Both the position numbers and the translations under genes were made by a program. DNA of 64,000 nucleotides from assembly GCF_041886205.1 (NCBI RefSeq), contig NZ_CP169029.1; one strand, written 5' to 3'. Positions 31,968-58,985 of the stretch are shown here, piece after piece; positions within the stretch are counted from its first letter, which is position 1, and every line of letters begins with the position of its first letter. This DNA is from Escherichia coli. Lineage in GTDB: Bacteria; Pseudomonadota; Gammaproteobacteria; Enterobacterales; Enterobacteriaceae. Below the pieces are notes generated by a model. The model was not told where the DNA came from and searched no databases. It was given only the letters and a program-made list of their open reading frames with translations.

Positions 31968-32162
31968 AGTGCGCAGATCCGGATAGATGTGTAGATGATG
32001 CATGAGCAGAAATGGGCAATGAAACACGGGCGACTATTTTGCGGCAAAAGAGGCCAGCCGCAAAAGCAGTGCGTGCTTTAAGAGATAAAAAAAACGTGAC
32101 ACTGTAACCTATTATTGCCGGATTGCGCGTAATCGTCACCATCCGGCAATATTACGGTGATC

Positions 32163-32777
32163 CTATCGAAACAGCGGTTTAACCGCGACAGGAATTAACA
32201 GTTGTGATTGCCATTGCGCCAGCGTTAAGCGAGCCAGTTCACCCAGTGCACGGTAGAAAGGGTGTTCTGCTTTTTCGATAAAAACCTCAAGAAAACGTGT
32301 TGACCACGGAAAAAGGTGCCATGCCAGCAATTCTTCGCATTCTGTCTGGCGACCATTCTCCGCCAACCACGCAGCCATCAACAGCAGTGAACCAAAATGA
32401 TCTTCCGGTTCGTTTTGCTTCATTTCAAACTGAATGCCTTTCTCGCGCATCCACTGACGAAGTGCCAATGTTGAATCGCCAAACAGCACAGATTCGCGAT
32501 CCAGCCAGACCGACCCCCACGGCGGAGACGGCAGTGCCCACGGGCCGACAAACAAACGCTGCCAGGCCTGGGCGTGAGTCTCTTCACACTGTGTCTGAAA
32601 AGCCGTCACCAGCGGCGCTAATGACGCTTCTGGTAGAGGCCACTGAGTTTCCCAGCCGTCACTGGTGAGTACCGCAACCAGAGGTGCGGCTTCCGCACTC
32701 TCTGGAGCGTAATAAAACAGCGCGCCCAACACGCGCGCCGCGACAGAAAAATTATCTTGCTGTGAAAAATGGGTCAT
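32163..32777 (-). CDS. dmsD: Tat proofreading chaperone for DMSO-reductase-family enzymes
   Basis: Start trimmed to ATG giving 204 aa (MTHFSQQDNF...); adjacent to the ynfEFGH operon. Confidence 0.85.
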   Translation of the reverse strand: MTHFSQQDNFSVAARVLGALFYYAPESAEAAPLVAVLTSDGWETQWPLPEASLAPLVTAFQTQCEETHAQAWQRLFVGPWALPSPPWGSVWLDRESVLFGDSTLALRQWMREKGIQFEMKQNEPEDHFGSLLLMAAWLAENGRQTECEELLAWHLFPWSTRFLEVFIEKAEHPFYRALGELARLTLAQWQSQLLIPVAVKPLFR

Positions 32778-32819
32778 TCCTAACATCCTGAAATGTGCGG
32801 GTTGCCCCGCACCAATTTG

Positions 32820-33674
32820 TTAACCTGCAATAGCCATTCCTACTGTCATGTGCAGGCCATAAAAGAGCACACGCCCGATCATCTCACCGCCAAGTATGAG
32901 GATTAGCCCCAGAATAAGTCCGGCAACGTGAGGTTCACGGCGACGAATGAGCGGGCAAAGCCAGCATCCAAGACCTGCGCATAACAATACCACACGCCAG
33001 ACCTGTAAGGAGGCGTAATCTGGTACCAGTGCGCTGGCTTGTTGCACGGATGAGTGAATAGACGCCAGAGACAAACCTTGCAGCACAATCACCCCGGCAC
33101 AAGCGATCAGCGCCAGAACGCTAATGATGGCAAATGGTGTGGTATTAAATGTAACGCGAGCTGCCCGCAGAATTGCGGCAGCAAGTATTGGACCGCTCAA
33201 CAATACCGTCAGGAAGAAAGCCAGCGTAGTGTAACCGTTATGCCAGGTTGGCACGGTGTCGATTTGATACACGCAGGTCATCATCCAGACGAAAATGACG
33301 CCGAGCGCCATGCTGAAAAGTAACCAGAGTTTCCCCAACGCTTGCGGCATTTTACCGATGACTGCCACCAGCCACCATAATCCGCCAACGGCAAAAAATA
33401 TGGAACCGGCAGCAATCTCGTTACTCAGACCAGAAGCTCCGATTCGATTCAGCGAGTTAAACGCCCGCAGTGGCGATCCCAGGTGCATGACAGAGGCAAT
33501 AAACCCGACGCCCATCAACAGCCAGAGGAAAAACATGCCACGGACAATACGCTGACGGTCTGCGTCATTTTTGGCGGCGAACCAGCCAATTCCGCTAACA
33601 ATCAGCGCGCCTACTACGCATTGACCCAATACGGTAAAGATAACCAGTGGCCACTCATGCCATCCATTTCCCAT
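32820..33674 (-). CDS. ynfH: DmsC-like membrane anchor subunit of a DMSO-reductase paralogue
   Basis: Long ORF trimmed to the ATG just downstream of ynfG (MGNGWHEWPLV...), 284 aa, multi-TM. Confidence 0.85.
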   Translation of the reverse strand: MGNGWHEWPLVIFTVLGQCVVGALIVSGIGWFAAKNDADRQRIVRGMFFLWLLMGVGFIASVMHLGSPLRAFNSLNRIGASGLSNEIAAGSIFFAVGGLWWLVAVIGKMPQALGKLWLLFSMALGVIFVWMMTCVYQIDTVPTWHNGYTTLAFFLTVLLSGPILAAAILRAARVTFNTTPFAIISVLALIACAGVIVLQGLSLASIHSSVQQASALVPDYASLQVWRVVLLCAGLGCWLCPLIRRREPHVAGLILGLILILGGEMIGRVLFYGLHMTVGMAIAG

Positions 33675-33675
33675 T

Positions 33676-34293
33676 TTACACTTCCTCCGGATTAGCCAGA
33701 TAACCAGTGGTATCGCCGGTCGGGCGGCTGTTGGCGTTAGGTTTGATAACGATATTGGGTTTTGTGAAATGCGCGCGCGGCAGTGGCGCGACGGCAGCAA
33801 GAGTGCCGTGCTTCTGGCGCAGCTCTTCAATTGGACCGAACTCAAGTGCACGCAGCGGGCAGGATTCGACACATATGGGTTGTTTCCCCTCGGCGACGCG
33901 CGAATAACAACCATCGCACTTCGTCATGTGCCCTTTTTCAGCATTGTACTGTGGCGCGCCGTACGGACAAGCCATGTGGCAGTAGCGGCAGCCGATACAA
34001 ACATCTTCATCAACCACCACAAAGCCATCTTCACGCTTATGCATTGCGCCGCTGGGGCAGACTTTTGTACATGCGGGGTCATCGCAATGGTTACAGGAGA
34101 TGGAGAGATAATAAGCGAACACGTTCTGGTGCCAGACGCCATTATCTTCCTGCCAGTCGCCGCCAGCGTATTCATAAATACGGCGGAAACTGACTTCCGG
34201 GCCAAGATCTTTAAAATCTTTGCACGCCAGTTCGCAGGTTTTACAGCCAGTACAGCGGCTGGAATCGATAAAAAATCCATATTGTGTGGTCAT
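33676..34293 (-). CDS. ynfG: DmsB-like 4Fe-4S ferredoxin subunit
   Basis: 205-aa ORF with four CxxCxxCxxxCP ferredoxin motifs. Confidence 0.9.
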   Translation of the reverse strand: MTTQYGFFIDSSRCTGCKTCELACKDFKDLGPEVSFRRIYEYAGGDWQEDNGVWHQNVFAYYLSISCNHCDDPACTKVCPSGAMHKREDGFVVVDEDVCIGCRYCHMACPYGAPQYNAEKGHMTKCDGCYSRVAEGKQPICVESCPLRALEFGPIEELRQKHGTLAAVAPLPRAHFTKPNIVIKPNANSRPTGDTTGYLANPEEV

Positions 34294-34303
34294 GGGCTAC
34301 TCC

Positions 34304-36727
34304 TTAAACCTTTTCGATCTGGACAAGATTGCTGTGCGACGGGTTTCCCTTTGCCAGCGGTGAAGGGCGGTGAGAGGTCAGAATATTGATACTGCCGCCG
34401 TGATCGACCCGGTCACCAAACATATCCGCTTTAAGCCACGCACCTTGCCCGATGGCGGTAACGCCAGGCAGAATACGCGGAGTCACTTTTGCGGCAATCA
34501 GCATTTCTCCATTATTGTTAAATACCCGCACGGTATCGCCATGACGGATACCGCGTGCCTGAGCATCAATGGGGTTGATCCACACCTCTTGTGGGCAGGC
34601 CTGCTGTAACACATCAATATTGCCGTAGCTGGAGTGGGTACGCGCTTTGTAATGGAAGCCCGTTAACTGCAGTGGATAGGTTTTCCGCAGGGGATCGTCC
34701 CAGCCATCAAAACCTGGGGTATACGCAGGAAGGGGATGAATAATTTCATCTTTTTTCAATTCCCAGGTATCTGCAATCTTCGCCAGTCGTTCAGAATAAA
34801 TTTCGATTTTCCCCGAAGGTGTTTTCAACGGGTTTGCCTGTGGATCTTCACGGAATGCGCGGAAAGCGACGTAGTGTTCTTCCGGGCATTTTTTCTTAAA
34901 GATCCCGGTCGTTTTCATCTCCTCGTAGTCGGGCATCTCAGGGTTACGTTCCTTCGTTTTCGCATGGAGATATTTGATCCATTCATGCTGACTGCGACCT
35001 TCAGTAAAGGTTTGATAAACGTCTGGTCCTAAGCGTTTGGCGACTTCACTCAGCATCCAGTAGATGGGTTTGCGTTCAAATTTTGCTGAGGTTGCGGGTT
35101 GGGCGAGGATCACATAGCCCATATTCCCTGCAGATTCATGAGAGATAAGGTCTTCTTGCTCTGTTGGCATCAGGTCGGGCAACAGGATATCGCAATACTT
35201 AGCCGAGGCCGTCATGAAGTGGTCAATGCCAACAATCATCTCGCACTTGCTGTCATCCTGAAGCACCTCATGGGTGTGATTGATGTCGCCATGTTGATTG
35301 ATCAATGTGTTACTGGCGTAGCACCATAAAAACTTGATGGGGACATCCAGTTTTTCTTTTCCACGAACACCATCACGGGTCGCGGTCATTTCCGTACCAT
35401 GGTCGATGGCATCTGTCCATGTAAAGACGGAAATCTGCGTTTTAACAGGATTCTCGAGCATCGGGAACCATTCTACCCCCAGATCCCAGCTACCTTCGCG
35501 TACGCCTGAGTTGCCGCCGTTTATGCCGACGTTGCCGGTGAGAACGGAAAGCATGGCAATAGCGCGGGATGTTTGCTCGCCGTTGGAATGTCGTTGTGGC
35601 CCCCAACCCTGACAAATATAAGCAGGTTTTGCTGAACCGATCTCTCGTGCCAACTGGATAATTTTTTCTGCCGGGATGCTGGTGATTTTTGCTGCCCATT
35701 CCGGCGTTTTAGCTATGCCGTCAGGCCCTTCGCCCAGAATATAGGCTTTATAATGCGCGTTACGTGGTGCGTTGGCGGGCAGCGTTTTTTCATCGTAACC
35801 AACACAATATTTGTCGAGAAATGGCTGATCGACCATGTTTTCAGTAATCAGTACCCAGGCAATCGCACAGGCCAGTGCGCCATCGGTGCCAGGGCGAATG
35901 GGCAGCCATTCATCTTCACGCCCGGCAGCAGTGTCGTTATAACGTGGATCGATGACGATCATGCGTGCGTTTGAACGTTCGCGGGCTTGCTCGACGTAGT
36001 AAGTGACACCACCGCCGCTCATCCGCGTTTCTGCCGGGTTATTTCCGAACATAACGACCAGTTTCGTATTGGCGATATCATCCGGGCTGTTGCCATCATT
36101 GGCACCGAACATATAACTCATTGCGGCACTGATCTGTGCGGTACTGTAGCTGCCATAGCGACTGAGAAAACCACCGCAAGAGTTCATCAGACGGTACGGG
36201 ACGTTTGAGTTGGTGATGTTTCCGCCATCTACACCTGTTCCGTACAGGACATGTACAGCCTCATTGCCGTAATCTTTTAGGATCCGCCGAAGATTATCAC
36301 TGATGGTATCCAGGGCTTCGTCCCAACTTATCCGTTCAAATTTACCTTCACCGCGCTTGCCGACGCGCTTCATGGGATATTTCAACCTATCAGGATGATT
36401 CATCCGTCGGCGGATAGAGCGCCCGCGTAAACACGCGCGAACCTGATGATTACCGTAGACGTCGTCACCTGTCGTATCAGACTCCACCCAGTACACGGTG
36501 TCATCTTTCACATGCAAACGTAACAGACAGCGGCTCCCGCAGTTAACGGTGCAGGAACTCCAGACCGCTTTCTCTTCTACCGGAACCTCTGCCGCCCGAA
36601 CCATTTGGGAAAATGGCAGAGTGAAAGCACTGCTTGCCAGCGCGAGACTGCCAAGTGCGGAGGTTTTCATCAGACTTCTACGGCTGATTTCAGCCTTCAT
36701 GAGCGCCTCTGTGGTATGGATTTTCAT
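34304..36727 (-). CDS. ynfF: molybdopterin oxidoreductase catalytic subunit, DmsA paralogue with Tat signal
   Basis: About 807-aa ORF with twin-arginine motif (SRRSLMK) and N-terminal Cys cluster; exact start (36727 or 36730) uncertain. Confidence 0.85.
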   Translation of the reverse strand: MKIHTTEALMKAEISRRSLMKTSALGSLALASSAFTLPFSQMVRAAEVPVEEKAVWSSCTVNCGSRCLLRLHVKDDTVYWVESDTTGDDVYGNHQVRACLRGRSIRRRMNHPDRLKYPMKRVGKRGEGKFERISWDEALDTISDNLRRILKDYGNEAVHVLYGTGVDGGNITNSNVPYRLMNSCGGFLSRYGSYSTAQISAAMSYMFGANDGNSPDDIANTKLVVMFGNNPAETRMSGGGVTYYVEQARERSNARMIVIDPRYNDTAAGREDEWLPIRPGTDGALACAIAWVLITENMVDQPFLDKYCVGYDEKTLPANAPRNAHYKAYILGEGPDGIAKTPEWAAKITSIPAEKIIQLAREIGSAKPAYICQGWGPQRHSNGEQTSRAIAMLSVLTGNVGINGGNSGVREGSWDLGVEWFPMLENPVKTQISVFTWTDAIDHGTEMTATRDGVRGKEKLDVPIKFLWCYASNTLINQHGDINHTHEVLQDDSKCEMIVGIDHFMTASAKYCDILLPDLMPTEQEDLISHESAGNMGYVILAQPATSAKFERKPIYWMLSEVAKRLGPDVYQTFTEGRSQHEWIKYLHAKTKERNPEMPDYEEMKTTGIFKKKCPEEHYVAFRAFREDPQANPLKTPSGKIEIYSERLAKIADTWELKKDEIIHPLPAYTPGFDGWDDPLRKTYPLQLTGFHYKARTHSSYGNIDVLQQACPQEVWINPIDAQARGIRHGDTVRVFNNNGEMLIAAKVTPRILPGVTAIGQGAWLKADMFGDRVDHGGSINILTSHRPSPLAKGNPSHSNLVQIEKV

Positions 36728-36787
36728 CATTACTCACTTATTGCTTTTCAAACAAAATGTCATGCCAGAATTTATGGTTGTAGTGGG

Positions 36788-39214
36788 TTATATTTTTTCG
36801 ATCTCGACCAGATTAGTGTGCTGCGGGTTTCCCTTCGCCAGTGGTGAAGGGCGCAGAGTGGTTAGCGTATTCACACAGCCGCCATGGTCGATTTTATCGC
36901 CAGACATATTGGCCTCGTGCCAGGCTCCCTGGCCCATAGCGCTAACTCCAGGGAGAATACGTGGTGTCACTTTGGCTGGTAGCCGAACTTCGCCACGATG
37001 GTTAAACACCCGCACCATATCGCCGTTGGCAATCCCACGTTTCTGCGCATCTATAGGGTTGATCCACACCTCCTGACGGCAGGCTGCTTTCAGGACATCA
37101 ATGTTGCCGTAGGTCGAGTGAGTACGGGATTTGTAATGGAAACCAAACAGTTGCAGTGGGAAGGTTCTACGTTCAGGGGAGTCCCAGCCTTCAAAGGTAG
37201 AGGCATAAACTGGCAGTGGGCTTATCACTTCATCTTTTTCCAGTTCCCAGGTACGGGCAATTTCCGCCAGCTTGCTGGAATAAATTTCAATCTTACCGGA
37301 AGGTGTTTTAAGTGGATTTGCCTCGGGGTCGTCACGAAATGCTTTGTAGGCGACAAAATGACCATTGGGATCTTTACGCTTATAGATACCCATTTTTTTC
37401 AGTTCGTCGTAAGACGGTAACGCCGGATCTTTGGCAAGCATTTTGGCGTACAGATGTTGTAACCATTGTTCCTGCGTGCGACCTTCAGTGAACTTTTGAT
37501 AGACGTCAGGTCCAAGACGTTTCGCGACTTCACTCAGGATCCAGTAAATCGGTTTGCGTTCGAATTTTTCGCTGGTGACAGGCTGGAGGAAAATGAGATA
37601 TCCCATGTTACCGGCGTAGTCGTTAGGAATAATATCTTCCTGCTCAACGGTCATCAGGTCTGGCAGCAGAATGTCGGCATATTTTGCCGATGAGGTCATA
37701 AAGTTTTCGATGACCACAATCATTTCGCATTTCGATTCGTCCTGCAGAATTTCATGCGTTTTGTTGATGTCAGAATGCTGATTAACGAGGGTATTTCCCG
37801 CGTAGTTCCAGATGAACTTAATGGGCACATCCAGTTTATCTTTGCCCCGGACGCCGTCGCGGATTGCCGTCATTTTGGGGCCATGATCGATAGCATCTGT
37901 CCAGCTGAAGCAGGAAATTGACGTTTTGACCGGATTATCCAGCACCGGCAGGCGCTCTATGGTAATGGTATAGGTCGATTCACGCGCGCCACTATTTCCG
38001 CCGCTGATGCCGACATTGCCCGTCAAAATAGGTAACATAGCAATAGCGCGTGCAGTCAGTTCGCCGTTTGCCTGGCGTTGTGGCCCCCAGCCCTGGCAGA
38101 TATAAGCGGGTTTTGCTGTGCCAATTTCACGCGCCAGTTTGATGATACGGTCCTCCGGGATACCGGTAATTTGCGAAGCCCACTGCGGCGTTTTCGCTGT
38201 TTTATCGTCACCTTCACCAAGAATATAGGCTTTATAGTGACCATTTTTGGGTGCATCTGCGGGTAAGGTTTTTTCGTCATAGCCGACGCAGTATTTATCG
38301 AGAAAAGGTTGATCAACGAGATTTTCGTTAATCAATACCCAGGCAATACCCGCAACCAGCGCGGCATCGGTGCCCGGGCGAATAGGGAGCCATTCGTCTT
38401 CACGACCGGCAGCCGTATCGGTATATCGCGGATCGATAACAATCATTTTGGCGTTCGATTTCTCGCGCGCTTTTTCAAGAAGATAAGTGATGCCACCACC
38501 GCTCATGCGGGTTTCTGCCGGGTTGTTACCAAACATCACGACCAGCTTGCTGTTTTCAATATCCGTGGTGCTGTTGCCATCATTACTGCCGTAGGTGTAG
38601 GGCATGGCACAGGAAATTTGCGCAGTGCTGTAGGAGCCATACTGGTTGAGTGAACCGCCGTAGCAGTTCATCAGGCGTTTGACCGCCGAGGCTGATGGCG
38701 AAGAGCGGGTCATATTGCCGCCAACGATCCCCGAAGAGTACTGAATATATACAGCCTCATTGCCATATTGTTCGACGGTTTTCTTCAGGCTACTGGCGAT
38801 AGTATCCAGGGCTTCATCCCAGCTAATCCGTTCGAATTTGCCTTCGCCGCGTTTGCCCACGCGTTTCATTGGGTAATTCAAGCGATCGGGATGATTAATA
38901 CGCCGGCGGATGGAGCGACCGCGCAAACAGGCGCGTACCTGATGGTTGCCGTACTCATCGCTGCCGGTATTGTCAGTTTCCACCCAGGTCACTTCATTAT
39001 CTTTAACATGTAGACGAAGTGCACAGCGGCTACCACAGTTGACGGAACAGGCACCCCAGACCACTTTTTCGCGGGCCTGTTGTACCGATGCTGCTGCATT
39101 GCGCAGGGTAAACGGCAAAGAAAAACCGCCTGCAGCCAGCGCCAGAGAACCTATCGCGGTAGATTTAACGAGTGTTCTGCGGCTGATGCCCACCATTCGT
39201 TCATTTTTGGACAT
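36788..39214 (-). CDS. ynfE: molybdopterin oxidoreductase catalytic subunit, DmsA paralogue with Tat signal
   Basis: 808-aa ORF with twin-arginine motif (SRRTLVK); tandem paralogue of ynfF. Confidence 0.9.
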   Translation of the reverse strand: MSKNERMVGISRRTLVKSTAIGSLALAAGGFSLPFTLRNAAASVQQAREKVVWGACSVNCGSRCALRLHVKDNEVTWVETDNTGSDEYGNHQVRACLRGRSIRRRINHPDRLNYPMKRVGKRGEGKFERISWDEALDTIASSLKKTVEQYGNEAVYIQYSSGIVGGNMTRSSPSASAVKRLMNCYGGSLNQYGSYSTAQISCAMPYTYGSNDGNSTTDIENSKLVVMFGNNPAETRMSGGGITYLLEKAREKSNAKMIVIDPRYTDTAAGREDEWLPIRPGTDAALVAGIAWVLINENLVDQPFLDKYCVGYDEKTLPADAPKNGHYKAYILGEGDDKTAKTPQWASQITGIPEDRIIKLAREIGTAKPAYICQGWGPQRQANGELTARAIAMLPILTGNVGISGGNSGARESTYTITIERLPVLDNPVKTSISCFSWTDAIDHGPKMTAIRDGVRGKDKLDVPIKFIWNYAGNTLVNQHSDINKTHEILQDESKCEMIVVIENFMTSSAKYADILLPDLMTVEQEDIIPNDYAGNMGYLIFLQPVTSEKFERKPIYWILSEVAKRLGPDVYQKFTEGRTQEQWLQHLYAKMLAKDPALPSYDELKKMGIYKRKDPNGHFVAYKAFRDDPEANPLKTPSGKIEIYSSKLAEIARTWELEKDEVISPLPVYASTFEGWDSPERRTFPLQLFGFHYKSRTHSTYGNIDVLKAACRQEVWINPIDAQKRGIANGDMVRVFNHRGEVRLPAKVTPRILPGVSAMGQGAWHEANMSGDKIDHGGCVNTLTTLRPSPLAKGNPQHTNLVEIEKI

Positions 39215-39412
39215 AACTCACTCCCTGTTCTTTATCGTTATATAAAAGTTTATATATTGAATATTTAGCGCGCTAACAATAGAGGGAGTCTACCCATTTT
39301 GGGTTAAGAATTATTAATCCATATCAATAGAAGGGTATGAGTAATAAGGTGGGATTATGTTGTATGTTCAAATCGCCGGATTTGTCATATCCGGCGTTCA
39401 GTCGATAATGTG

Positions 39413-39718
39413 TTACTGCGGTTCGGCAGGCGCGCCATCCTGGCTAGACTGCGCGGGAGCAGAGACGTTACCGCTGGTGGTGCGGGTATAGAGAATTTTA
39501 TGCGTATCATTAGCGCAATGGCCGACGACCTGGGAATCAGGCTGATCAACCTGGTCATTGGGTACAATACTTAACGTGAAGCTGCTTTCGGGTACGCCAT
39601 TATTGATAATGCGCTGTGATATATCGCTCTGTATGCGCTCACAGGATCCCGGCGCGGCGAGTACCGCGGGTGAGGCGAGGGCGAGCAGAAGCGCGGCACA
39701 GCAGGTTGAGAGTTTCAT
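39413..39718 (-). CDS. ynfD: small secreted DUF1161 protein
   Basis: Start trimmed to give 101 aa with signal peptide (MKLSTCCAALLLALASPAVLA). Confidence 0.75.
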   Translation of the reverse strand: MKLSTCCAALLLALASPAVLAAPGSCERIQSDISQRIINNGVPESSFTLSIVPNDQVDQPDSQVVGHCANDTHKILYTRTTSGNVSAPAQSSQDGAPAEPQ

Positions 39719-39825
39719 CATAAGCTCCTTACGCGAAGATAACTTCTTTAAGCATAGCATTTAACGTGTAAAGTACTGTATTTGCTACTATGATTGAGAA
39801 TCATCTCTACTCTCTGGTGACTGTT

Positions 39826-44443: not shown

Positions 44444-44572
44444 ATGACAATAGAAAAACACGAAAGAAGCACTAAGGATTTGGTGAAAGCAGCAGTATCG
44501 GGATGGCTGGGCACTGCGCTTGAATTTATGGATTTCAAGAGTCATACGTGTCAACTATTTGATAAATATTAA
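44444..44572 (+). pseudogene. ydfJ: probable 5' fragment (42 codons) of a ydfJ-like MFS transporter gene interrupted by the prophage
   Basis: Short ORF MTIEKHERSTKDLVKAAVSGWLGTALEFMDF... ending abruptly next to the integrase gene; in K-12 the Qin prophage splits ydfJ beside rspB (recalled, not aligned). Confidence 0.45.
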
Positions 44573-44573
44573 A

Positions 44574-45869
44574 TTAATTTTTCATTGCTTCGTTATGGGG
44601 CATGGTTGGGGCAAACTCGCTTAACTGTGTATTTAACAAAGCTACCTGTGCATTATTGTTTTCAGACATCCATTTTCCGTATACCTGAAATACCATTTGC
44701 GCATCTGCATGGCCCATCTGGTTTGCTATAAATGCCGGGTTAGCACCAGCTGTCAGCGACCAGCAGGCATAAGTATGTCTCGACTGATATGATTTTCGAT
44801 GGCGGAGTCCGGCACGTTTTATCGCTGCGTCCCACATCTGCCTTATTGAGTCAACGGTAAAATGGTCACCATAATTTTTTACTCTCGCTGACACTTCAGG
44901 TTGAAAAACAAAGGTGCATTTATGTTTTTCTGTTCTGCCATACTCTCTGAGGTGAACATCAATGATATGCTCTTTGCTCAGTCTCGTTAATGTCATCTGA
45001 CTCCGGAGAGCGTCGATTGCTGGCTTAATAAGATGAATGACCCGATTGGTTCCCGCCTGTGTTTTTGGGACCGTGAAACGGTCTTTTGCTAAATTTCTCC
45101 TGATCATCATTGTTCCATTTTTCAGATCTATGTCCTCCCATCCAAGTGCACACAGCTCACCAGGGCGAACGCCAGTATAAACAGAAACACACCATAAATT
45201 TTTGGCTTGCTGATTTCTGCACGCATCGATAAGACGGATGAATTCCTCCCGCGAAAGAGGATCCGGAATGGTTCTTGATTCCTTTAATGGCGAGATCCCC
45301 TTAAACGGGTTATCTGCCAGGTAACCGTTATCAACACCAAACTGGAACACGGCGTTAAGATTTGTCATGTAATTATTTACAGTTACAGCCGATCTCCCTG
45401 GTTGTGTAACAATATAGTTACTTTTGGGGATCTGGTATCCAGTCAGTAGCTCTTTACGAACCTCCAGTAATTTTTCTTTATTAATCGATGAGGCAAGATT
45501 TTTTTCACCGATTATGCTCAGGATATTTTTGATGACGGCACGGTATGTGTTGAGTGATGTTTTGGCGACTTCAGTTTCTTTCAGTGCCAGAAATTTTTCA
45601 GCCAGTTCTTTTATGGTTAAATCTTGTCGGGCCTCACCAAATTTTTCCAGATTGCGTGAGGAGGGAAACTGTTTTGCATAGTCGAAAACACCAGTTTTTA
45701 TTGCGTAACAAACAGAGGAGCGTAGTTCACCTGCAACGCGCCTGTTTTTTGCTGTGTCAGGAACCCCCAGATTTTCCCTGACTCTTACGCCTTTATAAAC
45801 AAACCAGATACGTAATTTCCCTCCATGGTTTTCCACGCCTGTCGGATATTTCATTTCAACTTCTCTCAT
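44574..45869 (-). CDS. phage integrase, tyrosine recombinase family
   Basis: 431-aa ORF with C-terminal catalytic motifs (…RHTYACW…HADAQMVFQVYGKW…); adjacent to the presumed attL; true start may be the internal MKYPTG. Confidence 0.85.
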   Translation of the reverse strand: MREVEMKYPTGVENHGGKLRIWFVYKGVRVRENLGVPDTAKNRRVAGELRSSVCYAIKTGVFDYAKQFPSSRNLEKFGEARQDLTIKELAEKFLALKETEVAKTSLNTYRAVIKNILSIIGEKNLASSINKEKLLEVRKELLTGYQIPKSNYIVTQPGRSAVTVNNYMTNLNAVFQFGVDNGYLADNPFKGISPLKESRTIPDPLSREEFIRLIDACRNQQAKNLWCVSVYTGVRPGELCALGWEDIDLKNGTMMIRRNLAKDRFTVPKTQAGTNRVIHLIKPAIDALRSQMTLTRLSKEHIIDVHLREYGRTEKHKCTFVFQPEVSARVKNYGDHFTVDSIRQMWDAAIKRAGLRHRKSYQSRHTYACWSLTAGANPAFIANQMGHADAQMVFQVYGKWMSENNNAQVALLNTQLSEFAPTMPHNEAMKN

Positions 45870-45888
45870 TAGTTAGTGTGGCTTTTAG

Positions 45889-46140
45889 TCAAGTAAGATG
45901 ACGTCTTGGTCTTGCTGATGCCTGGCGCTCAATCCAGCGATCAATTTCTTCCAGGTTGTAAAAGCATGGACTGTTATCCCATGGCATACCGTCATGAGCG
46001 ACATGCTTATATTCCCTTCCTTCCATAAACGATTTTTCCCGGGCCTTTTTTAACGTACCTTTTTTTATTCCTTTCAGCGCAATTAACTGCTCTTCGGATA
46101 CCCATTTGCCGGGAGAGACAATCATGATTACTTCGCTCAT
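45889..46140 (-). CDS. putative excisionase / small DNA-binding protein
   Basis: 83-aa ORF immediately upstream of int in the same orientation. Confidence 0.55.
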   Translation of the reverse strand: MSEVIMIVSPGKWVSEEQLIALKGIKKGTLKKAREKSFMEGREYKHVAHDGMPWDNSPCFYNLEEIDRWIERQASARPRRHLT

Positions 46141-46212
46141 CGATTTCTTTATCTCTTACATCAGACGAGCGCCGGTTGCAGAATACCAGTCACAACCGGC
46201 GACAGTTGAACA

Positions 46213-47935
46213 TTAAGAATCAGCCTGACTCGGGATCAGTTTTTGCCAGATAGCTGAAACGTATTTTGCCTGGTAACGGGCGTCATCAAGTGCATTATGG
46301 CGCTCACCTTCGAATGGAATAGCCGTTCTGGCATCGAAGTCTATGGCTTTCCCCAGCTCAACGATTGTGCGTACATCGCGATCGTTGTAGTAACGCCACG
46401 GGCAGGGGATCCCCTGCCGTTCGTATGAACGGCGCAAAATCGTGTTGTCGAAGTTGGCTCCATTTCCCCAGACATGAACAAAAAATTCACCGGAGTTTTC
46501 GTCGATAAATTCCCGCAATTGTAACAGTGCATCATCTAACGGGATTTCATCGGTCATAATGGCAGATTGCGCTTCGCGTGATTGTTTAAGCCACCATTTA
46601 ATGGTGTCCCGATCAATGACTCCGCCAGCAGTTTCCAGATCGATAGTCTTACTAAATTCCGGTCCCATATCTCCGGTTTGCGGATCGAAAAATATTGCAC
46701 CTATTGAGATAATCGGGGCATCGGGATTTTTTCCCATGGTTTCAAGGTCGATCATCAGATGAATCCCCGCTCTGCTGGTGGATGTGAGATTATGATGACC
46801 GTTTGCCTTAATTAAGGGATCTGACGCCTCGCCAGTTTCACTATCGCTGGCATGATGCTGATTGCCGCCAGTGTTCTCCTTGTGCTGATGCGCAGTGCCT
46901 TCTATTTCCTCCGGATCATTTTCCTGAACTTCAGGCTGATTCTCTCCATCGAATATTTCCTGGTATGTTGCGTCACCCATCACCGCACCACAATCAGGGC
47001 AGTTGCCGCCACCGCTCTGACCGCAGGCGGTGCAGATCTTTTCCGGTTCCTGTTGCACTACTGGTTCAGGTTGTTTCGTTTCTGGCTCGTTTTGTTGCAT
47101 ATTTGGGCTGTTTTGTTCCGCTTTCTGGTCGTTCTGTTCCGTTTCTTGCTGGTTCTGGTTCACAGAATCGCGGGTCTGGATCCCCTTAATCCATTTCGGA
47201 TCATTCGGGTCGCTAATCCCTTCAACAAATTCACCACGTGATACTGCAAGCAGTTCATCGGCGTCAGGCTGGCTGATATTGGCTGCCTGCATAATTTTGT
47301 TTACTTCGTCAGCGGTAACTTTTACTGACCCTGGTTGTGCGGTCGTGTCAGATGCACCAGTATTTTGTTGTGAACCTGAGTATGTACCGTTTTTGCGGGC
47401 GAAATATTCTTCTTTCGTGATTTCAGTAGCCCCAGCAGACAGCGCCTTATCCAGACCAGAAAGTTTATTTGCGCGACCGTATTTTTCGCCATCCTTGTCG
47501 GTGAAGAGGAAGTAGAACGGCCCCTCACGTTCTACAGATGGTTCGACTTCCACTTTGCATTCGGTTTTTTCGTTGTCTGGAATTGCCGTTTCCACTGCAT
47601 CAGTTTCTGGTACTGGCGACGAGAGAGTATCAGTTGCGCTCTGATTTGTTCCTTCATCTTCAAACACGCCCTTTGTAGTCAGGTATTCAGTAATGTATTT
47701 GTTCAGTGCCACAGGGTCTTTGTGAATGTCGATCGGACGTTCACGGACAAGGCCAAAAATAGTCTGGCGGTCGTAGCGAAGGGCATCAGGCTGTTTGCGC
47801 ATTGATGCCGAGATACGCTTCCAGTCTTCGCGGTCGTTGTCGATAACTTCATTTTTTGCCCAGCGATGGATGCTGCCGTCAATGTTTCCGGCATCCACAT
47901 CACCAGGCCAGAGAGCGTAGGCCAGTTCGTCATCC
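46213..47935 (-). pseudogene. 3' portion of a phage exonuclease gene (DnaQ-like DEDDh 3'-5' exonuclease domain) interrupted by IS629
   Basis: Open frame continues upstream from the called ORF right up to the IS629 left end; C-terminus has exonuclease motifs (…MIDLETMG…, …HNALDDA…). Confidence 0.7.
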
Positions 47936-47989
47936 TGAACCGCCCCGGGAATCCTGGAGACTAAACTTCCTGAGAAAGAGGTAAACAGG

Positions 47990-48316
47990 ATGACTAAAAA
48001 TACTCGTTTTTCCCCCGAAGTCCGTCAACGGGCAGTCCGTATGGTTCTGGAAAGTCAGAGCGAATATGACTCACAATGGGCGACAATTTGTTCCATTGCT
48101 CCAAAGATTGGCTGTACGCCGGAGACTCTGCGTGTCTGGGTTCGCCAGCATGAGCGGGATACCGGGGGCGGTGATGGAGGGCTCACCACCGCTGAACGTC
48201 AGCGTCTGAAAGAGCTGGAACGTGAAAATCGTGAACTGCGCCGCAGTAACGATATCCTTCGCCAGGCTTCCGCTTATTTTGCGAAGGCGGAGTTCGACCG
48301 CCTCTGGAAAAAATGA
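47990..48316 (+). CDS. IS629 transposase OrfA (HTH)
   Basis: 108-aa [22 protein letters not shown]...; ends in an A-run slippery site. Confidence 0.85.
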
Positions 48317-49203
48317 TGCCACTGCTGGATAAGCTGCGTGAGCAGTACGGGGTCGGACCGCTATGCAGCGAACTGCATATTGCCCCGTCAACGTATTACC
48401 ACTGTCAGCAACAGCGACATCATCCGGATAAACGCAGTGCCCGTGCGCAGCGCGATGACTGGCTGAAGAAAGAGATACAGCGCGTATACGATGAAAATCA
48501 CAAGGTATACGGTGTGCGTAAAGTCTGGCGTCAGTTGTTACGGGAAGGTATCAGAGTGGCCAGATGCACTGTGGCACGTCTCATGGCGGTTATGGGACTT
48601 GCCGGTGTTCTCCGGGGTAAAAAGGTCCGTACGACCATCAGCCGGAAAGCCGTTGCCGCAGGCGACCGCGTAAACCGTCAGTTCGTGGCAGAACGACCTG
48701 ACCAGCTGTGGGTGGCTGATTTTACTTACGTCAGCACATGGCGGGGCTTCGTCTATGTGGCGTTCATCATTGATGTGTTTGCCGGATACATCGTGGGGTG
48801 GCGGGTCTCATCGTCCATGGAAACGACATTCGTGCTGGATGCACTGGAGCAGGCGTTATGGGCCCGTCGACCGTCCGGCACGGTCCATCACAGTGATAAA
48901 GGTTCTCAGTATGTATCGCTGGCCTACACACAGCGGCTTAAGGAAGCCGGATTACTGGCATCAACAGGAAGTACAGGCGACTCGTATGACAACGCGATGG
49001 CGGAGAGCATCAATGGTCTTTACAAAGCGGAGGTAATACACCGTAAGAGCTGGAAAAACCGTGCAGAAGTGGAACTGGCCACACTCACGTGGGTGGACTG
49101 GTATAACAATCGACGATTGCTGGAAAGGCTGGGCCATACTCCTCCGGCAGAAGCAGAAAAAGCTTATTATGCTTCCATCGGAAACGATGATCTGGCAGCC
49201 TGA
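48313..49203 (+). CDS. IS629 transposase OrfB (DDE integrase domain), -1 frame relative to OrfA
   Basis: 296-aa ORF with DDE motif region; overlaps orfA in the -1 frame as in IS3-family elements. Confidence 0.85.
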
Positions 49204-49245
49204 GTTCACAGATAAAACACTCTCCAGGAAACCCGGGGCGGTTCA

Positions 49246-49760
49246 TCCAGTGTTTTCCATGTCTGCTTGTATTCGCGATGAATGGCAGCAATGACCGGGT
49301 TGATTTTTCCTGTTGAATTTTCAGTGTGCTGTTGATTGGCTCTGGCACGGGCGAGATCAACAACAGACGTGTATTTTCCGGCTTCCTTGCGTTCACCTTC
49401 GCGACGTTTTTTCCAGATGCGCATCTCTGCCTGAATTTCGGGCCATTTGGCACCAGGCTTACATTTATGCTTAACCCACCCGATGGCATGCAGCTTAAGC
49501 TCCGGATACATAGCGTTAACTTCTGGCATTTTCATCAACGCTTCAACGATATGGCCGTCGAATGTTGCCATGTCTTCCTGCAACAATTCCTGTGCGCTAA
49601 TCACCATATCAACAGTGATGTTTTCACATGTGTCGAACTTAACCATGACAGCGTTCTGTACTTCAGGGGCTAGGTTGTCAAAAGTGACGTTCATCGGATC
49701 GGATTCAGTCTCGACCGGGACAAAGGAAGCAGACGCCTCATCCCAGCGGTTTTCCTGCAT
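49246..49760 (-). pseudogene. 5' portion of the IS629-interrupted phage exonuclease gene
   Basis: ORF beginning MQENRWDEASASF... runs into the IS629 right end; its last ~12 called codons are IS-derived. Confidence 0.6.
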
Positions 49761-50017
49761 ATATTCAGCATCCCAGGAATCGAGGGCAGGGCGGGGTATA
49801 CCGGGTTTATCCTCGCAAACAAGAAATTTATAAGCGCAGTCCTGAGCAGCCGGATAATGTTCCAGGAATTGCCAGTGAAATTTTGCGCGGGCGCGACGTT
49901 CATCACCGGCTTCAATGGCAGTGGCTACAGTGAGACGAACTTCGCCGTGCGCTTTCGTGTTGTGTGCCTGCTTTTAACCACGTCAGGCGAGGTGGTATCC
50001 TTAAAATCACCACAGTT

Positions 50018-50593
50018 TTAAGGATTCATTAAGCAATGTCGCAACCACCAATAAATCCGCTTAAGAACATGAAAATTGATTACTGGTATAAAGCGCTTAC
50101 AGTTGTTGGCGCTGCGTTGTTTGTCTTTAATGGAACGTCTTTTTTTGACAGATATCCCGTTGTTCCATTGGATTTTTTGTCCTCCGGCATCTTTTTTATT
50201 GGTTTGGGGGAGTGGATTAATCACCCTCTCAAAGTGAGATTTATTGGTCCTGGAGTTTGGACTCGTGGATATAATCGTTCTTAGTGCGCACTCGGTATCA
50301 TCTTCGACATACTTGGTTGTTTCCTGATTGTTACAGGAGTCGTCAAGTTCTTCTGATGTAAAACCGCAAATGGGGCACGTAACGGGAATTTTGAAAAGCG
50401 TTTCTCCGGGTTCCAGAACAAAATTTTCTGCGGTCTGATTTTGCTTCTCATATTTGTGCTCCGCGTCATTGTGAGAGCACATTCTTATTCTGAGTGCCTG
50501 TTTAAACTCACTGAAGCTGAGAGCTTCTTCGCCTTCGGCAAGACCTTCGAAGTATTCTTCGTAAGCCTTTTCCATGATTGTGTCGAAATCCAT
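50018..50593 (-). CDS. hypothetical prophage early-region protein with CxxC zinc-ribbon-like motif; 3' extent uncertain
   Basis: ATG at 50593 preceded by RBS AGGTGAG; N-terminal ~100 aa protein-like (…VTCPICGFTSEE…), distal part low-complexity and overlapping a plus-strand ORF. Confidence 0.4.
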   Translation of the reverse strand: MDFDTIMEKAYEEYFEGLAEGEEALSFSEFKQALRIRMCSHNDAEHKYEKQNQTAENFVLEPGETLFKIPVTCPICGFTSEELDDSCNNQETTKYVEDDTECALRTIISTSPNSRTNKSHFERVINPLPQTNKKDAGGQKIQWNNGISVKKRRSIKDKQRSANNCKRFIPVINFHVLKRIYWWLRHCLMNP

Positions 50594-50594
50594 A

Positions 50595-50831
50595 TCACTC
50601 ACCTGAGTTTCTTTCCAGCCAGCGACGGGCACCATTTTCGGTTTTAAACGTTTTGCTTTTGGTATACGTCATCGCGGTGAACGTACCGTCCTGGTTGGGG
50701 AACACGCCACATACCGGAGATTCGCTGTTGCCAAGATCGATAGTATCCATGCTGACCTCATTTCCCCTTAACGCCGGGGTAGCGGAACAAAAACCTGCTG
50801 CATAGTTATTAAAGTTGAACCCTGCCGTCAT
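50595..50831 (-). CDS. hypothetical small prophage protein
   Basis: 78-aa ORF whose stop lies 1 nt before the next ATG (translationally coupled arrangement). Confidence 0.4.
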   Translation of the reverse strand: MTAGFNFNNYAAGFCSATPALRGNEVSMDTIDLGNSESPVCGVFPNQDGTFTAMTYTKSKTFKTENGARRWLERNSGE

Positions 50832-51047
50832 GTTCTTACGCCTCGGGCTGGCTACTTAACCCCTGACCACTGCCTGGTAACTCGAAGTATTGCCCTGCAT
50901 TCTGTGGGGCGGGGTGGGTGGCAGGCATATAATGTACTTTGCGTTCATTGTTGTAAAGTACTTTTAGTACATTTTGTGTGTAAAAAAATGAGATGGGATA
51001 AAGTGAAGCACAAACCCGGAGGAAGGCGCTACCGGATTTATGCTGGT

Positions 51048-51467
51048 TTAAGAGGCTTTTTGTTTTTTCTTTCGTGCTAACTCTTCGTAAATTGCATTGT
51101 ACTTCTGTTTTTTCTCTTCAAGAGTTTTTAAAAGTTCATCTGTCTCACTGTCAGGGAGCTCGTCCAGAAGGTCAATGATGATTTTTTGTCTTGGATTTAA
51201 CTCCTGATAGAAACGTACCTGTCCACTTTCTTCTGTATCCTCTCCCAAAAGATAGGTTGGTGTTGTTCCTATTAGTGTTGCTAATTCCCTTAATTTCTCC
51301 CGGCGAGGAATTGTTTCGCCATTAAACCATTTGCTAACCGCTTTTGGTGTTAATTTCATTCGACGGGCAATTTCTGCCTGCCTTCCATGTTGTTCATAAC
51401 CAGCGTTTTCACAGGCTAGCGCAAGCCTACTGGCGAACTCTTTACGCGCTTTATCTTCATGAACCAT
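51048..51467 (-). CDS. prophage repressor, XRE-family HTH (DicA/cI-like)
   Basis: 139-aa ORF with HTH (…MKLTPKAVSKWFNGETIP…); divergent from a Cro-like gene. Confidence 0.75.
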   Translation of the reverse strand: MVHEDKARKEFASRLALACENAGYEQHGRQAEIARRMKLTPKAVSKWFNGETIPRREKLRELATLIGTTPTYLLGEDTEESGQVRFYQELNPRQKIIIDLLDELPDSETDELLKTLEEKKQKYNAIYEELARKKKQKAS

Positions 51468-51546
51468 AAGTTCAATGATATTCGCTCTTGAATGTACTGT
51501 CAGTTCTGTTATAGCATGTACTCAAAGTTCACACTGTGAGGGTGAT

Positions 51547-51801
51547 ATGAACCAGAAAACACTTGAAGATGTAATCAAAACTGTTCGCGTTGCTGTTGTG
51601 GCCGACGTTTGTGGTGTCAGCCAAAGAGCAATCTATAAATGGATGGATAACGGAAAATTGCCTCGCACAGAATATACCGGCGAAACAAATTACGCTGAAA
51701 AAATCGCTCTTGCATCAAACGGATTATTTTCTGCCGATGCAATTTTAACTATTGGCAGGAATAAAACTACTACGAAAAAGCTGATGGGAGTTGATTCATG
51801 A
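51547..51801 (+). CDS. Cro/YdaS-like HTH protein
   Basis: ATG at 51547 with RBS GAGGGTGA; HTH (…VADVCGVSQRAIYKWMDNGKLP…); ATGA overlap with next gene. Confidence 0.65.
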   Translation: MNQKTLEDVIKTVRVAVVADVCGVSQRAIYKWMDNGKLPRTEYTGETNYAEKIALASNGLFSADAILTIGRNKTTTKKLMGVDS

Positions 51802-52223
51802 AAATCAAGCATGAACACATCCGCATGGCGATGAATGCCTGGGCGCATCCGGACGGCGAAAAAGTACCGGCTGCGAAAATTACCAAAGCGTATTTCGAGC
51901 TGGGAATGACGTTCCCGGAACTGTATGACGACAGCCATCCGGAAGCCCTGGCTCGCAATACTCAGAAAATTTTCCGCTGGGTGGAGAAAGACACCCCTGA
52001 TGCGGTTAAAAAAATTCAGGCGTTGTTACCAGCTATCGAAAAAGCAATGCCACCTCTGCTGGTGGCCCGAATGCGCAGTCATAGCTCAGCCTATTTTCGG
52101 GAACTAGTGGAGACGCGGGAACGACTGGTGAGAGACGCTGATGATTTTGTCGCAGTGGCGATCGCTGGTTTCAACCAGATGAATCGTGGTGGCCCTGCAG
52201 GAAATATTGTGGTTGTGCATTGA
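51798..52223 (+). CDS. YdaT-like prophage protein
   Basis: 141-aa ORF beginning MKIKHEHI..., same length class and context as Rac YdaT (recalled). Confidence 0.6.
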   Translation: MKIKHEHIRMAMNAWAHPDGEKVPAAKITKAYFELGMTFPELYDDSHPEALARNTQKIFRWVEKDTPDAVKKIQALLPAIEKAMPPLLVARMRSHSSAYFRELVETRERLVRDADDFVAVAIAGFNQMNRGGPAGNIVVVH

Positions 52224-52294
52224 CTCGCAATATTCATACCGGATCACTTCCGGCAATTTGTGAGTAAAAAGATTCGGTATCAAAAGAGGTGAGT

Positions 52295-53365: not shown

Positions 53366-53405
53366 GTGTTAATTTCTGGTCATGAGGTAATTTTCAGGAG
53401 GGCTT

Positions 53406-53828
53406 GTGGCAAAAGTTTTTACACAAGAAGAGCGGGAAAAAATTAAAGGGCAGGTTGTTGAACTCGTACGCCAGAGTGGGCGCGAGACGTTAAGACAACT
53501 GGAAACTAAAACTGGGGCAACAAAATATATGATGAACGTTCTGGCCAGAGAGCTGGTTGCCAGTGGCGATGTATACAACTCTGGTTACGGGTTATTCCCG
53601 TCTGAACAGGCGCGTAAGGACTGGCAAAATGCCCGTAAAAAGCTCTCAAGGGCAAAGCTGAAGAAACCATCTGCGGTTGATCCGGACCTTATCTGGTCAT
53701 TACCTGATGGAGAAATACGTCGTTACGACAGGCGTCATAATATGATTTGTACTGAGTGTCGTAAAAGCGAAGTTATGCAGCGCATATTGTCGTTTTATCA
53801 GGGGGATGTTCGGTATTTATTGAAGTGA
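53406..53828 (+). CDS. hypothetical prophage protein
   Basis: 140-aa ORF with GTG start and RBS AGGAGGG 6 nt upstream. Confidence 0.45.
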   Translation: MAKVFTQEEREKIKGQVVELVRQSGRETLRQLETKTGATKYMMNVLARELVASGDVYNSGYGLFPSEQARKDWQNARKKLSRAKLKKPSAVDPDLIWSLPDGEIRRYDRRHNMICTECRKSEVMQRILSFYQGDVRYLLK

Positions 53829-54223
53829 CGAGATTAAAGTGCATTAGTTCAGATGCAAATTGACATTTTGTGGCACAGGGTAGAGCTAGCGTGGTTGTCC
53901 GCTTTGTGCCAACAGCGGACATTATGGAAGGTCAGAGTTAAAGATTAAAATGGGATGCTGTGTGTTTTCTCCAGGTTTTGCTCTATACCTTTCGGGATAC
54001 TCCACCGACAGAATACGAAAATCAACATTATCAACGGCTCGAAGTGTCTAGATTATCCATGGCAATTCATGGGAAATCCCATCCAACGGCTTATGCTTCA
54101 TGTTGCTTTTTGAGATCGCTTCTAGCATAGCTCCACTCAATAATGTTGTCGGGTCGTTGCTGATCGAAAAGGATACGGGATTCAATACCATTACCTAAAA
54201 AGCTGGTACCGGAACTCGGGCTG

Positions 54224-55228: not shown

Positions 55229-55245
55229 TTTTGTGGAGTAAGTTG

Positions 55246-55623: not shown

Positions 55624-55721
55624 TTAAAGGAAAAGTTGCTGTCTGATTTTCATTAGTCTAACATTTTAAATGTTGGAATCGCAACGTAGTTATTATCATA
55701 TAACAGCTTGTTTCCTGATTT

Positions 55722-55750
55722 AGCCAGCCTCCCCAAAGGCTGGTTTTTTT
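55722..55750 (+). terminator. intrinsic terminator about 100 bp downstream of the Q-like gene (candidate tR')
   Basis: Hairpin GCCAGCC-TCCCCAAA-GGCTGG followed by a T7 run. Confidence 0.6.
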
Positions 55751-58981: not shown

Positions 58982-58985
58982 TCCA

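Follow-up and report, generated by a model that had tools for sequence, protein, structure and literature searches.

The ynfEFGH-dmsD operon of Escherichia coli (also written ynfEFGHI) reportedly encodes a selenate/tellurate reductase, and is said to have been described as such by Lubitz and Weiner in 2003 and by Guymer et al. in 2009. The DmsABC enzyme of the same species has in common with the ynf system a three-subunit architecture, the chaperone DmsD and the type of Tat signal. The two systems differ in that the ynf operon contains dmsD and a tandem pair of A-subunit genes, and in that the substrate assigned to it genetically in the literature is selenate/tellurate, not DMSO. The narGHJI and narZYWV sets of E. 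coli are likewise ancient paralogous Mo-bisPGD systems with dedicated NarJ-family chaperones (PMC4464133). However, in nar an entire operon has been duplicated and the two copies lie at different loci, whereas in ynf the catalytic gene alone has been duplicated, in tandem, and YnfE and YnfF have to make do with a single B subunit, a single C subunit and a single chaperone between them.

We analyzed a stretch of 64,000 nt of E. coli DNA (contig NZ_CP169029.1; referred to below as the window). The region 32163-39214 is almost certainly the chromosomal ynfEFGH-dmsD operon of E. coli, with ynfE and ynfF as ancient tandem paralogues that each encode a complete DmsA-type Mo-bisPGD catalytic subunit. 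Both the gene pair and the operon are already known, and this textbook system is intact here. Its components are the following:

36788..39214, (-) strand: ynfE, gene of the first catalytic (A) subunit, 808 aa (ORF; RefSeq on identical DNA; NF041885)
36728..36787, (-) strand: ynfE-ynfF intergenic spacer, 60 nt
34304..36727, (-) strand: ynfF, gene of the second catalytic (A) subunit, 807 aa per RefSeq (ORF; NF041884)
33676..34293, (-) strand: ynfG, four-cluster Fe-S electron-transfer (B) subunit, 205 aa, single copy (TIGR02951, 264.8 bits vs 214.1)
32820..33674, (-) strand: ynfH, membrane anchor and quinol-oxidising (C) subunit, 284 aa, single copy (Pfam DmsC PF04976, 427 bits)
32163..32777, (-) strand: dmsD (ynfI), Tat proofreading chaperone, last gene of the operon (NF008632, 346.6 bits vs 162)

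The order is thus A-A-B-C-chaperone on a single strand, with spacers of 60 nt (E-F), 10 nt (F-G), 1 nt (G-H) and 42 nt (H-dmsD). In the ORF list of the window ynfE and ynfF lie head-to-tail, both on the (-) strand, and the interval 34304-39214 runs exactly from the ynfF stop to the ynfE start. The first ATG of ynfF is at 36730, in frame and one codon upstream of the annotated start, and from this codon the gene would span 34304-36730 and encode 808 aa. No frameshifts or stop codons were found in the ynfE or ynfF genes of the window. Positions 32000-39800 match E. coli 6EVA at 7800 of 7801 positions, and the genes are annotated there as ynfE, ynfF, ynfG, ynfH and dmsD; about 5,300 of 5,426 complete genomes of the species contain this stretch. 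Gene order and orientation are as in K-12 and Salmonella, and so are the neighbours (ynfD upstream and clcB downstream); across ynfE-ynfF the DNA of K-12 strains is 99.5% identical to the window. There is no difference of substance from the K-12 and Salmonella operon, and the window carries a natural-isolate allele.

The two catalytic subunits

The identity of each protein was established with the curated NCBIfam profile models, in which every subunit passed its own model and failed that of its paralogue. YnfE scored 1796.6 bits with the YnfE model NF041885 (cutoff 1675) and 1476.3 bits with the YnfF model (cutoff 1650), and YnfF scored 1774.8 bits with the YnfF model NF041884 (cutoff 1650) and 1482.3 bits with the YnfE model (cutoff 1675). 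Both exceeded the cutoff of 777.7 bits of the DMSO/selenate family reductase A subunit model TIGR02166 (YnfE 1401.8 bits, YnfF 1286.1 bits), and neither reached the 1600 bits required by the DmsA-specific model (YnfE 1344 bits, YnfF 1320 bits). In both proteins the Pfam domains PF04879 (Molybdop_Fe4S4), PF00384 (Molybdopterin) and PF01568 (Molydop_binding) follow each other in this order, all above their gathering scores. The four cysteines of the FS0 [4Fe-4S] cluster, Cys56/60/64/96 in YnfE and Cys59/63/67/99 in YnfF, are all invariant with DmsA. The YSTAQ motif is also present in YnfE and YnfF (from residue 194 in YnfF) and is invariant in DmsA. Its Ser195 in YnfF is the predicted Mo ligand, as is Ser196 in YnfE, which by our own residue count aligns with Ser147 of the R. 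sphaeroides DMSO reductase 1EU1; we take this residue to be the Mo ligand of that enzyme. A PDB search turned up a structure for none of DmsA, YnfE and YnfF, and the best relatives were soluble DorA/TorA-type enzymes (E ~1e-75).

Twin-arginine motifs are present at residues 11-17 of YnfE (SRRTLVK) and 15-21 of YnfF (SRRSLMK), and downstream of each lie a stretch of hydrophobic residues and an AxA-like site. With the TAT_signal model TIGR01409 (cutoff 16.7 bits) the YnfF N-terminus scored above the cutoff (20.3 bits) and the YnfE N-terminus below it (13.5 bits). The YnfE signal has been studied experimentally as a DmsD-bound Tat signal (PMC5203670, PMC3316669), and the n-region of YnfF resembles that of DmsA. 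The earlier note on this DNA had described two adjacent DmsA-type catalytic genes of 807/808 aa, both with Tat signals and followed by single ynfG and ynfH genes, as a known E. coli tandem duplication; the ORFs, the model scores, the two motifs and the RefSeq names ynfE and ynfF on identical DNA all agree with this description.

Pairwise protein identities were 67.4% for YnfE-DmsA, 66.6% for YnfF-DmsA and 70.9% for YnfE-YnfF. Among the other subunits, YnfH is 57% identical to DmsC (BLASTP) and YnfG is 94% identical to K-12 DmsB (193/205). A conversion between ynfG and dmsB as the source of this last value was rejected, since the proportion of synonymous differences (pS) between the two genes is 0.74, and the protein similarity is thus due to constraint and not to recent conversion.

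Expression and proposed function of the operon

The ynfE promoter is reported to be FNR-activated and NarL-repressed (Xu, Busby & Browning 2009, J Bacteriol 191:3172). A pattern search located one candidate element upstream of the operon:

39314..39327, (-) strand: candidate FNR box TTGATatggATTAA, near-consensus with 1 mismatch, centred ~106 nt upstream of the ynfE ATG

This box may be the site at which the anaerobic ynfE promoter is activated, and TAGACT at 39292-39287 would be the -10-like hexamer of this promoter. In the ynfE-ynfF spacer a weak Shine-Dalgarno-like GTGAG directly precedes ATGATG. It has been reported that RyhB represses ynfF translationally, and that a ynfF-lacZ fusion covering -60..+24 is repressed (PMC4666370). 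In the window this RyhB-responsive element would essentially coincide with the spacer at 36728..36787. An Rfam scan of the whole window found no RNA family in the ynf region; its only matches lie in the prophage part, where an ALIL pseudoknot spans 48271-48387 and a cspA thermoregulator spans 60538-60923.

In the mechanism that the literature suggests, anaerobiosis would lead to transcription of the operon from the FNR-dependent promoter upstream of ynfE, and DmsD would bind the signal peptides of YnfE and YnfF during cofactor insertion. Binding of DmsD to the signal peptides of DmsA, YnfE and YnfF has been documented (PMC5203670, PMC3316669, PMC10609526). The folded A subunit would then be exported via Tat, presumably together with YnfG, and would dock on the sole anchor, YnfH, so that alternative periplasm-facing isoenzymes, YnfE-GH and YnfF-GH, would be formed. 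Electrons would pass from menaquinol through the Fe-S clusters of YnfG to Mo, where selenate (and tellurate) would be reduced, and the iron-sparing sRNA RyhB would add a further layer of control on ynfF by repressing its translation via the intergenic region. As to the substrate, in Salmonella YnfE is responsible for the greater part of the selenate reductase activity in vivo (PMC5203670), a delta-ynfEF strain of E. coli has lost Se(VI) reduction (PMC12724226), and tellurate reduction has reportedly been described by Fujita et al. (2021); recent papers continue to call the physiological substrate of each isoenzyme 'putative' (PMC12096835).

Divergence of the pair and its behaviour as a repeat

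In a self-BLAST of the whole window (E <= 1e-10) ynfE/ynfF was the sole pair reported, with an alignment of 2290 nt and 1114 bits. No exact repeats of at least 22 nt were found anywhere in the window by k-mer scan, and the only other repeat revealed by the self-BLAST and k-mer scans was a 21-nt direct repeat at 52419/52689. The claim of the earlier note that the pair is the largest internal repeat of the window is thus correct. The pairwise alignment that had been suggested as a check, with low identity as the adverse outcome, gave 567/799 identical residues (71%, E = 0) for the proteins by BLASTP and 1682/2412 identical positions (69.7%) for the DNA; at the protein level the identity is therefore not low. 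The longest exact run common to both genes is 17 nt, and no 18-mer is shared. At synonymous sites pS is 0.705 (dS ~2.1, saturated), and at nonsynonymous sites pN is 0.187 (dN 0.215). The DNA identity, the short longest run and the saturated synonymous sites indicate that the duplication is ancient. Salmonella YnfE and YnfF are likewise 71% identical (PMC5203670), which places the duplication before the Escherichia-Salmonella split. The resulting pN/pS of ~0.27 (dN/dS ~0.1) indicates that both copies have been under purifying selection through the long history of the pair.

The earlier note had also regarded the pair as a possible site for misassembly or recombination. If the duplication were recent or an assembly artefact, i.e., one gene written twice, or alleles collapsed or expanded, two co-oriented genes of equal length 60 nt apart would be the expected layout, and this is the layout observed. 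However, such copies would not have diverged to 69.7% DNA identity without a common 18-mer and with saturated synonymous sites, nor would the arrangement recur elsewhere: 5,126 independent genomes among the 5,426 complete ones of E. coli carry the pair in colinear form for 80% or more of its length, and the same two genes are present in Salmonella (PMC5203670). The divergence and conservation figures refute this explanation, whose probability is negligible. A repeat prone to recombination or misassembly would carry long identical or near-identical tracts (tens of nt perfect; more than ~90% overall), and none was found between ynfE and ynfF. On these figures misassembly, as the earlier note had envisaged it, is no realistic risk at copies so far diverged. 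The case of recombination is different, in that two independent in-frame ynfE::ynfF hybrid genes do occur in other E. coli genomes, which would be expected if the pair were an active substrate for recombination or gene conversion and the copies in the window were mosaic or unstable. These hybrids were counted by junction-specific searches only and are rare (about 10 of the 5,426 complete genomes, ~0.2%). Each occupies the ynfD-ynfG interval and substitutes for both genes. Type 1 (WP_104457354.1) was found in ECONIH4, six '0H' strains and CAVP776, and its protein is recorded on 68 contigs of public assemblies; type 2 (WP_256683566.1) was found in JCC-EE 7 and FELIX_MS533. Promoter and signal peptide of the hybrids are E-type, as is the first third to half of the protein, and the rest is F-type. 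When a synthetic hybrid was used as the query, 457 genomes were returned at >=80% coverage, but the reading that these were as many hybrids was rejected, since megablast extends over the E/F homology and the pieces are joined.

RecA-type exchange needs roughly 25 nt of identity or more, and mismatch repair suppresses it between sequences that differ by 30%. The crossovers of the hybrids fall within 10-14 nt of sequence shared by ynfE and ynfF, which points to rare short-homology or illegitimate deletion and not to efficient RecA-type exchange. Furthermore, at 688 diagnostic columns each allele of CFT073, EC958 and BEN5202 is of one type throughout, E or F, and neither gene of the window is shortened. 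Across sliding windows of 60 codons pS ranged from 0.55 to 0.89, so that no window fell below 0.55, no low-pS tract was present, and recent ynfE/ynfF gene conversion was rejected. Hence, it is very unlikely that the pair is an active recombination substrate with mosaic copies here, and, judged by sequence, it is ill suited to classical homologous recombination. The earlier proposal of a possible recombination site stands at the level of the species, where hybrids are found, and not for the window, where nothing has recombined. For the window itself the duplication is of little consequence, and the copies of this sole large internal repeat have diverged too far to put the assembly at risk.

Fate of the pair within the species

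Given that selenate reduction in Salmonella is an activity to which YnfF 'does not contribute greatly' (PMC5203670), the pair might consist of a working gene and a relic, with one copy, likeliest ynfF, redundant and being lost. In uk_P46212 and the ST131 strain EC958, two internal deletions have reduced ynfF to a frameshifted pseudogene of 1,570 bp. This finding, together with the presence of the junction of the 580-bp ynfF deletion in 546 of the 5,426 complete genomes, EC958 among them, argues in this direction, as does the truncation or IS interruption of ynfE in some other strains. However, the ynfF gene of the window is intact, with all cofactor-binding motifs kept and a score above its curated cutoff, the low pN/pS extends to both copies, ~90% of complete E. 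coli genomes retain both genes, ynfF is under RyhB control of its own (PMC4666370), and in some lineages the gene loss affects ynfE as well. We therefore consider the reading of a working gene plus a relic improbable, and prefer that of two complete paralogues. A connection of the ST131 ynfF deletions with the E/F homology was rejected, since they are simple losses within the gene and no obvious repeats flank them.

A broader and speculative possibility, to which we likewise give little weight, is that the E/F redundancy is evolutionarily unstable in E. coli and has been resolved repeatedly, by decay of ynfF, by IS hits in ynfE and by short-homology deletions that yielded functional, circulating YnfE(N)::YnfF(C) domain swaps, so that the window would represent the ancestral, unrearranged state. 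If so, the circulating hybrids would be natural domain swaps that could expose what distinguishes YnfE from YnfF. About 10% of complete E. coli genomes are without a functional ynfF, including that of the ST131 model strain EC958. With this loss and the few hybrid lineages, it depends on the strain whether a figure of "seven S-/N-oxide reductases" applies to E. coli, and ynfF expression data are strain-dependent as well. EC958 is also a strain that has been used in recent S-/N-oxide reductase work.

Identity and layout of the ynfE/ynfF pair

When the open reading frames around 34304-39214 were listed, two 808-codon ORFs, both on the minus strand, were found at 36788-39214 and 34304-36730, and ORFs matching ynfG, ynfH and dmsD came next on the same strand. 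From end to end, the stretch 32000-39800 matched the E. coli 6EVA chromosome (7800/7801, reported as 100.0%), the sole mismatch, at position 32375, being located in dmsD. The 6EVA annotation gives the following features:

36788-39214 (-), ynfE
34304-36727 (-), ynfF, 807 aa, starting at the second ATG of ATGATG
downstream of ynfF (-), ynfG, ynfH and dmsD
flanks: ynfD upstream, clcB downstream

Set against these ORFs and this annotation, both the span 34304-39214 and the lengths of 807/808 aa that the earlier note gave for the pair are exact. On the NCBIfam YnfE model (cutoff 1675) the upstream protein reached 1796.6 bits and the downstream protein 1482.3 bits; on the YnfF model (cutoff 1650) the scores were 1476.3 and 1774.8 bits, respectively. 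Neither protein reached the DmsA-specific cutoff, both far exceeded that of the dmsA_ynfE subfamily, and both carry, in this order, the Pfam domains Molybdop_Fe4S4, Molybdopterin and Molydop_binding. ynfG exceeded the cutoff of the DmsB-type model, dmsD that of the DmsD equivalog, and ynfH matched Pfam DmsC; the models and the 6EVA annotation agree with the genes named earlier, including the single ynfG and ynfH. Four N-terminal cysteines (YnfE 56/60/64/96; YnfF 59/63/67/99) and a YSTAQ motif are present in both proteins; in a PDB search the serine of this motif aligned with the Mo ligand Ser147 of Rhodobacter sphaeroides DMSO reductase 1EU1. The best PDB relatives were soluble DorA/TorA-type enzymes, and the search returned no structure for DmsA, YnfE or YnfF themselves.

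The Tat signals ascribed to both proteins are borne out by a twin-arginine motif in each (SRRTLVK at 11-17 of YnfE, SRRSLMK at 15-21 of YnfF), although with a generic TAT-signal model (cutoff 16.7 bits) the isolated N-terminus passed for YnfF (20.3 bits) and not for YnfE (13.5 bits). The dependence of YnfE on Tat and DmsD has been examined experimentally (PMC5203670; PMC3316669). The n-region of the YnfF signal (N-terminus, 36590-36727) is DmsA-like, matching positions 1-48 of the DmsA model at 46.8 bits, whereas that of YnfE (N-terminus, 39080-39214) is not; the same remark has been made for Salmonella (PMC5203670). Within ynfE and ynfF, the plus strand has antisense ORFs of 114-192 codons at 36498-37076, 36998-37420 and 38309-38653; RefSeq annotates none of these, which are most likely mechanical.

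Divergence of the pair and comparison with DmsABC

YnfE and YnfF share 567/799 identities (71%, E = 0, BLASTP), and in a MAFFT alignment their genes show 1682 matches, 730 mismatches and 30 gap columns (69.7% identity). The pair was described earlier as the largest internal repeat in the window, which is correct, since it was the sole match when the window was compared with itself by BLAST (E <= 1e-10). A k-mer scan of the whole window returned no exact repeat of at least 22 nt and no 18-mer common to both genes, whose longest exact common run is 17 nt. No exact repeat in the window is longer than a 21-nt direct repeat in the prophage region (52419-52439 and 52689-52709, 270 nt apart).

By codon-based Nei-Gojobori counts, ynfE and ynfF differ with pS = 0.705 (dS about 2.1, effectively saturated) and pN = 0.187 (dN = 0.215), so that both genes have long been under purifying selection. 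Across 60-codon windows pS was 0.55-0.89 throughout, and hence there is no recent gene-conversion tract between them. The repeat is old and diverged. Given that YnfE and YnfF of Salmonella are also 71% identical (PMC5203670), the duplication is dated to before the Escherichia-Salmonella split.

Compared with K-12 DmsA, YnfE is 67.4% and YnfF 66.6% identical (YnfE-YnfF, 70.9%). The Fe-S subunits are far closer (YnfG-DmsB, 94%) than the catalytic subunits (67%) or the membrane subunits (YnfH-DmsC, 57%). Gene conversion between ynfG (33676-34293) and dmsB (L004:3415-4032, in the dmsB-carrying locus) was considered and ruled out, because synonymous sites are saturated (pS 0.74; pN 0.037); the high identity therefore reflects constraint, which is very strong for YnfG.

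Recombination, hybrid genes and decay in other strains

With 69.7% identity and a perfect match of at most 17 nt, the sequence of the pair makes it a poor substrate for recombination or misassembly, and assemblers with k of at least 18 see two unrelated genes. Among 5,426 complete E. coli genomes, 5,126 keep the pair in colinear order across 80% or more of its length, so the arrangement is stable in practice. The suggestion that it might be misassembled is unsupported by the identity, the k-mers and this conservation. What the earlier note called a known tandem duplication is indeed one, annotated in 6EVA and found in those genomes; the feature was already known and is intact in the window, and the observation and its interpretation were both right. 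As a possible site for recombination it does qualify elsewhere in the species, but as a rare event, the pair in the window being intact.

Such events were found with a synthetic query in which the last 1200 nt of ynfF ran directly into the first 1200 nt of ynfE. Some genomes carry one 2,427-bp gene between ynfD and ynfG instead of the pair, having cleanly lost one complete 2,484-bp repeat unit:

L009:3501-5927 (ECONIH4), in-frame ynfE::ynfF hybrid, 808 aa, in place of window 34304-39214
L010:3501-5927 (JCC-EE 7), in-frame ynfE::ynfF hybrid, 808 aa, in place of window 34304-39214

When the window genes were aligned with the alleles of CFT073, EC958 and BEN5202, 688 columns proved diagnostic of E or F. 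The JCC-EE 7 hybrid has 232 consecutive E-type sites followed by 456 F-type sites, with the switch point inside the common 14-mer AACCCGGCAGAAAC. In the ECONIH4 hybrid, E-type sites run up to and including column 1161 and F-type sites begin at about column 1172, with the switch inside about 10 nt common to both genes; a single F-type site (column 138) stands apart, and two sites are of neither type. Junction searches returned nine records of the ECONIH4 type at >= 99% identity, eight of them named (ECONIH4, six "0H" strains from Alberta, and CAVP776 from Virginia), and two of the other type (JCC-EE 7 and FELIX_MS533). The ECONIH4-type protein, WP_104457354.1, is present on 68 contigs in public assemblies, which shows that the allele truly circulates and does not stem from an error of a single assembler. 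Hybrids occur in about 10 complete genomes (about 0.2%); the count is a lower bound, since hybrids with a crossover far from the middle would be missed if they ranked below the top matches considered. The two types are independent, each with its switch point in very short common sequence, and we read them as occasional short-homology deletions rather than as evidence of a hotspot.

Decay of single genes was also observed. In the uk_P46212 locus (L002:2501-4070) and the ST131 reference EC958 (L008:5264-6833), only 1,570 bp of ynfF remain, as a frameshifted pseudogene, after two clean internal deletions that took out the equivalents of window 34386-34659 (274 bp) and 35434-36013 (580 bp); the 580-bp junction is present in 546/5,426 complete genomes. 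EC958 ynfF thus cannot give rise to a full-length enzyme. A 2025 study that treated the EC958 gene as functional measured its "ynfF" expression and counted YnfF among possible DmsABC back-up enzymes (PMC12096835). Further, ynfE is truncated beside mobile DNA in NCTC9966, carries an internal deletion in BEN5202, and is interrupted by IS26/aph(3')-Ia or IS3 in other strains. One or two ynfE-ynfF DNA matches fell on plasmid-typed records.

Function, regulation and surroundings

According to the literature, the ynf operon encodes a membrane-bound selenate reductase facing the periplasm (PMC5203670). Fujita et al. 2021 reportedly name the same genes tellurate reductase genes. In Salmonella, catalysis in vivo is mainly by YnfE, with a small share for YnfF, YnfG serving in electron transfer and YnfH in quinol oxidation (PMC5203670), and E. 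coli without ynfEF loses Se(VI) reduction (PMC12724226). DmsD binds the signal peptides of DmsA, YnfE and YnfF and is required for all three enzymes (PMC5203670, PMC10609526, PMC3316669).

The sRNA RyhB represses ynfF translation, and a reporter with ynfF -60..+24 responds to it (PMC4666370); as read from the sequence, this region corresponds to the 60-nt spacer between ynfE and ynfF. A pattern search located a near-consensus FNR box, TTGATatggATTAA, upstream of ynfE at 39327-39314. Xu, Busby & Browning 2009 are reported to describe activation of the ynfE promoter by FNR, with which this candidate box fits.

The window tracks 6EVA from at least 32000, where the comparison begins, to 44536, with three single-base differences. 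The match ends at 44537, inside ydfJ, the remainder of which is replaced (44537-64000) by lambdoid, Qin-like prophage DNA with integrase, exonuclease, replisome organiser and ydfU-like genes. Rfam matches in this part are an ALIL pseudoknot (48271-48387, 120 bits), a programmed-frameshift signal of the IS3 family, and a cspA-type thermoregulator 5' UTR (60538-60923, 113 bits). These surroundings have no bearing on the ynfE/ynfF finding. Upstream of ynfE, directly past the ynfD stop codon, there is a hairpin, GCCGGAT-atgacaa-ATCCGGC (39374-39394, minus strand), which is probably the ynfD terminator and would divide ynfD from the ynfE promoter region.
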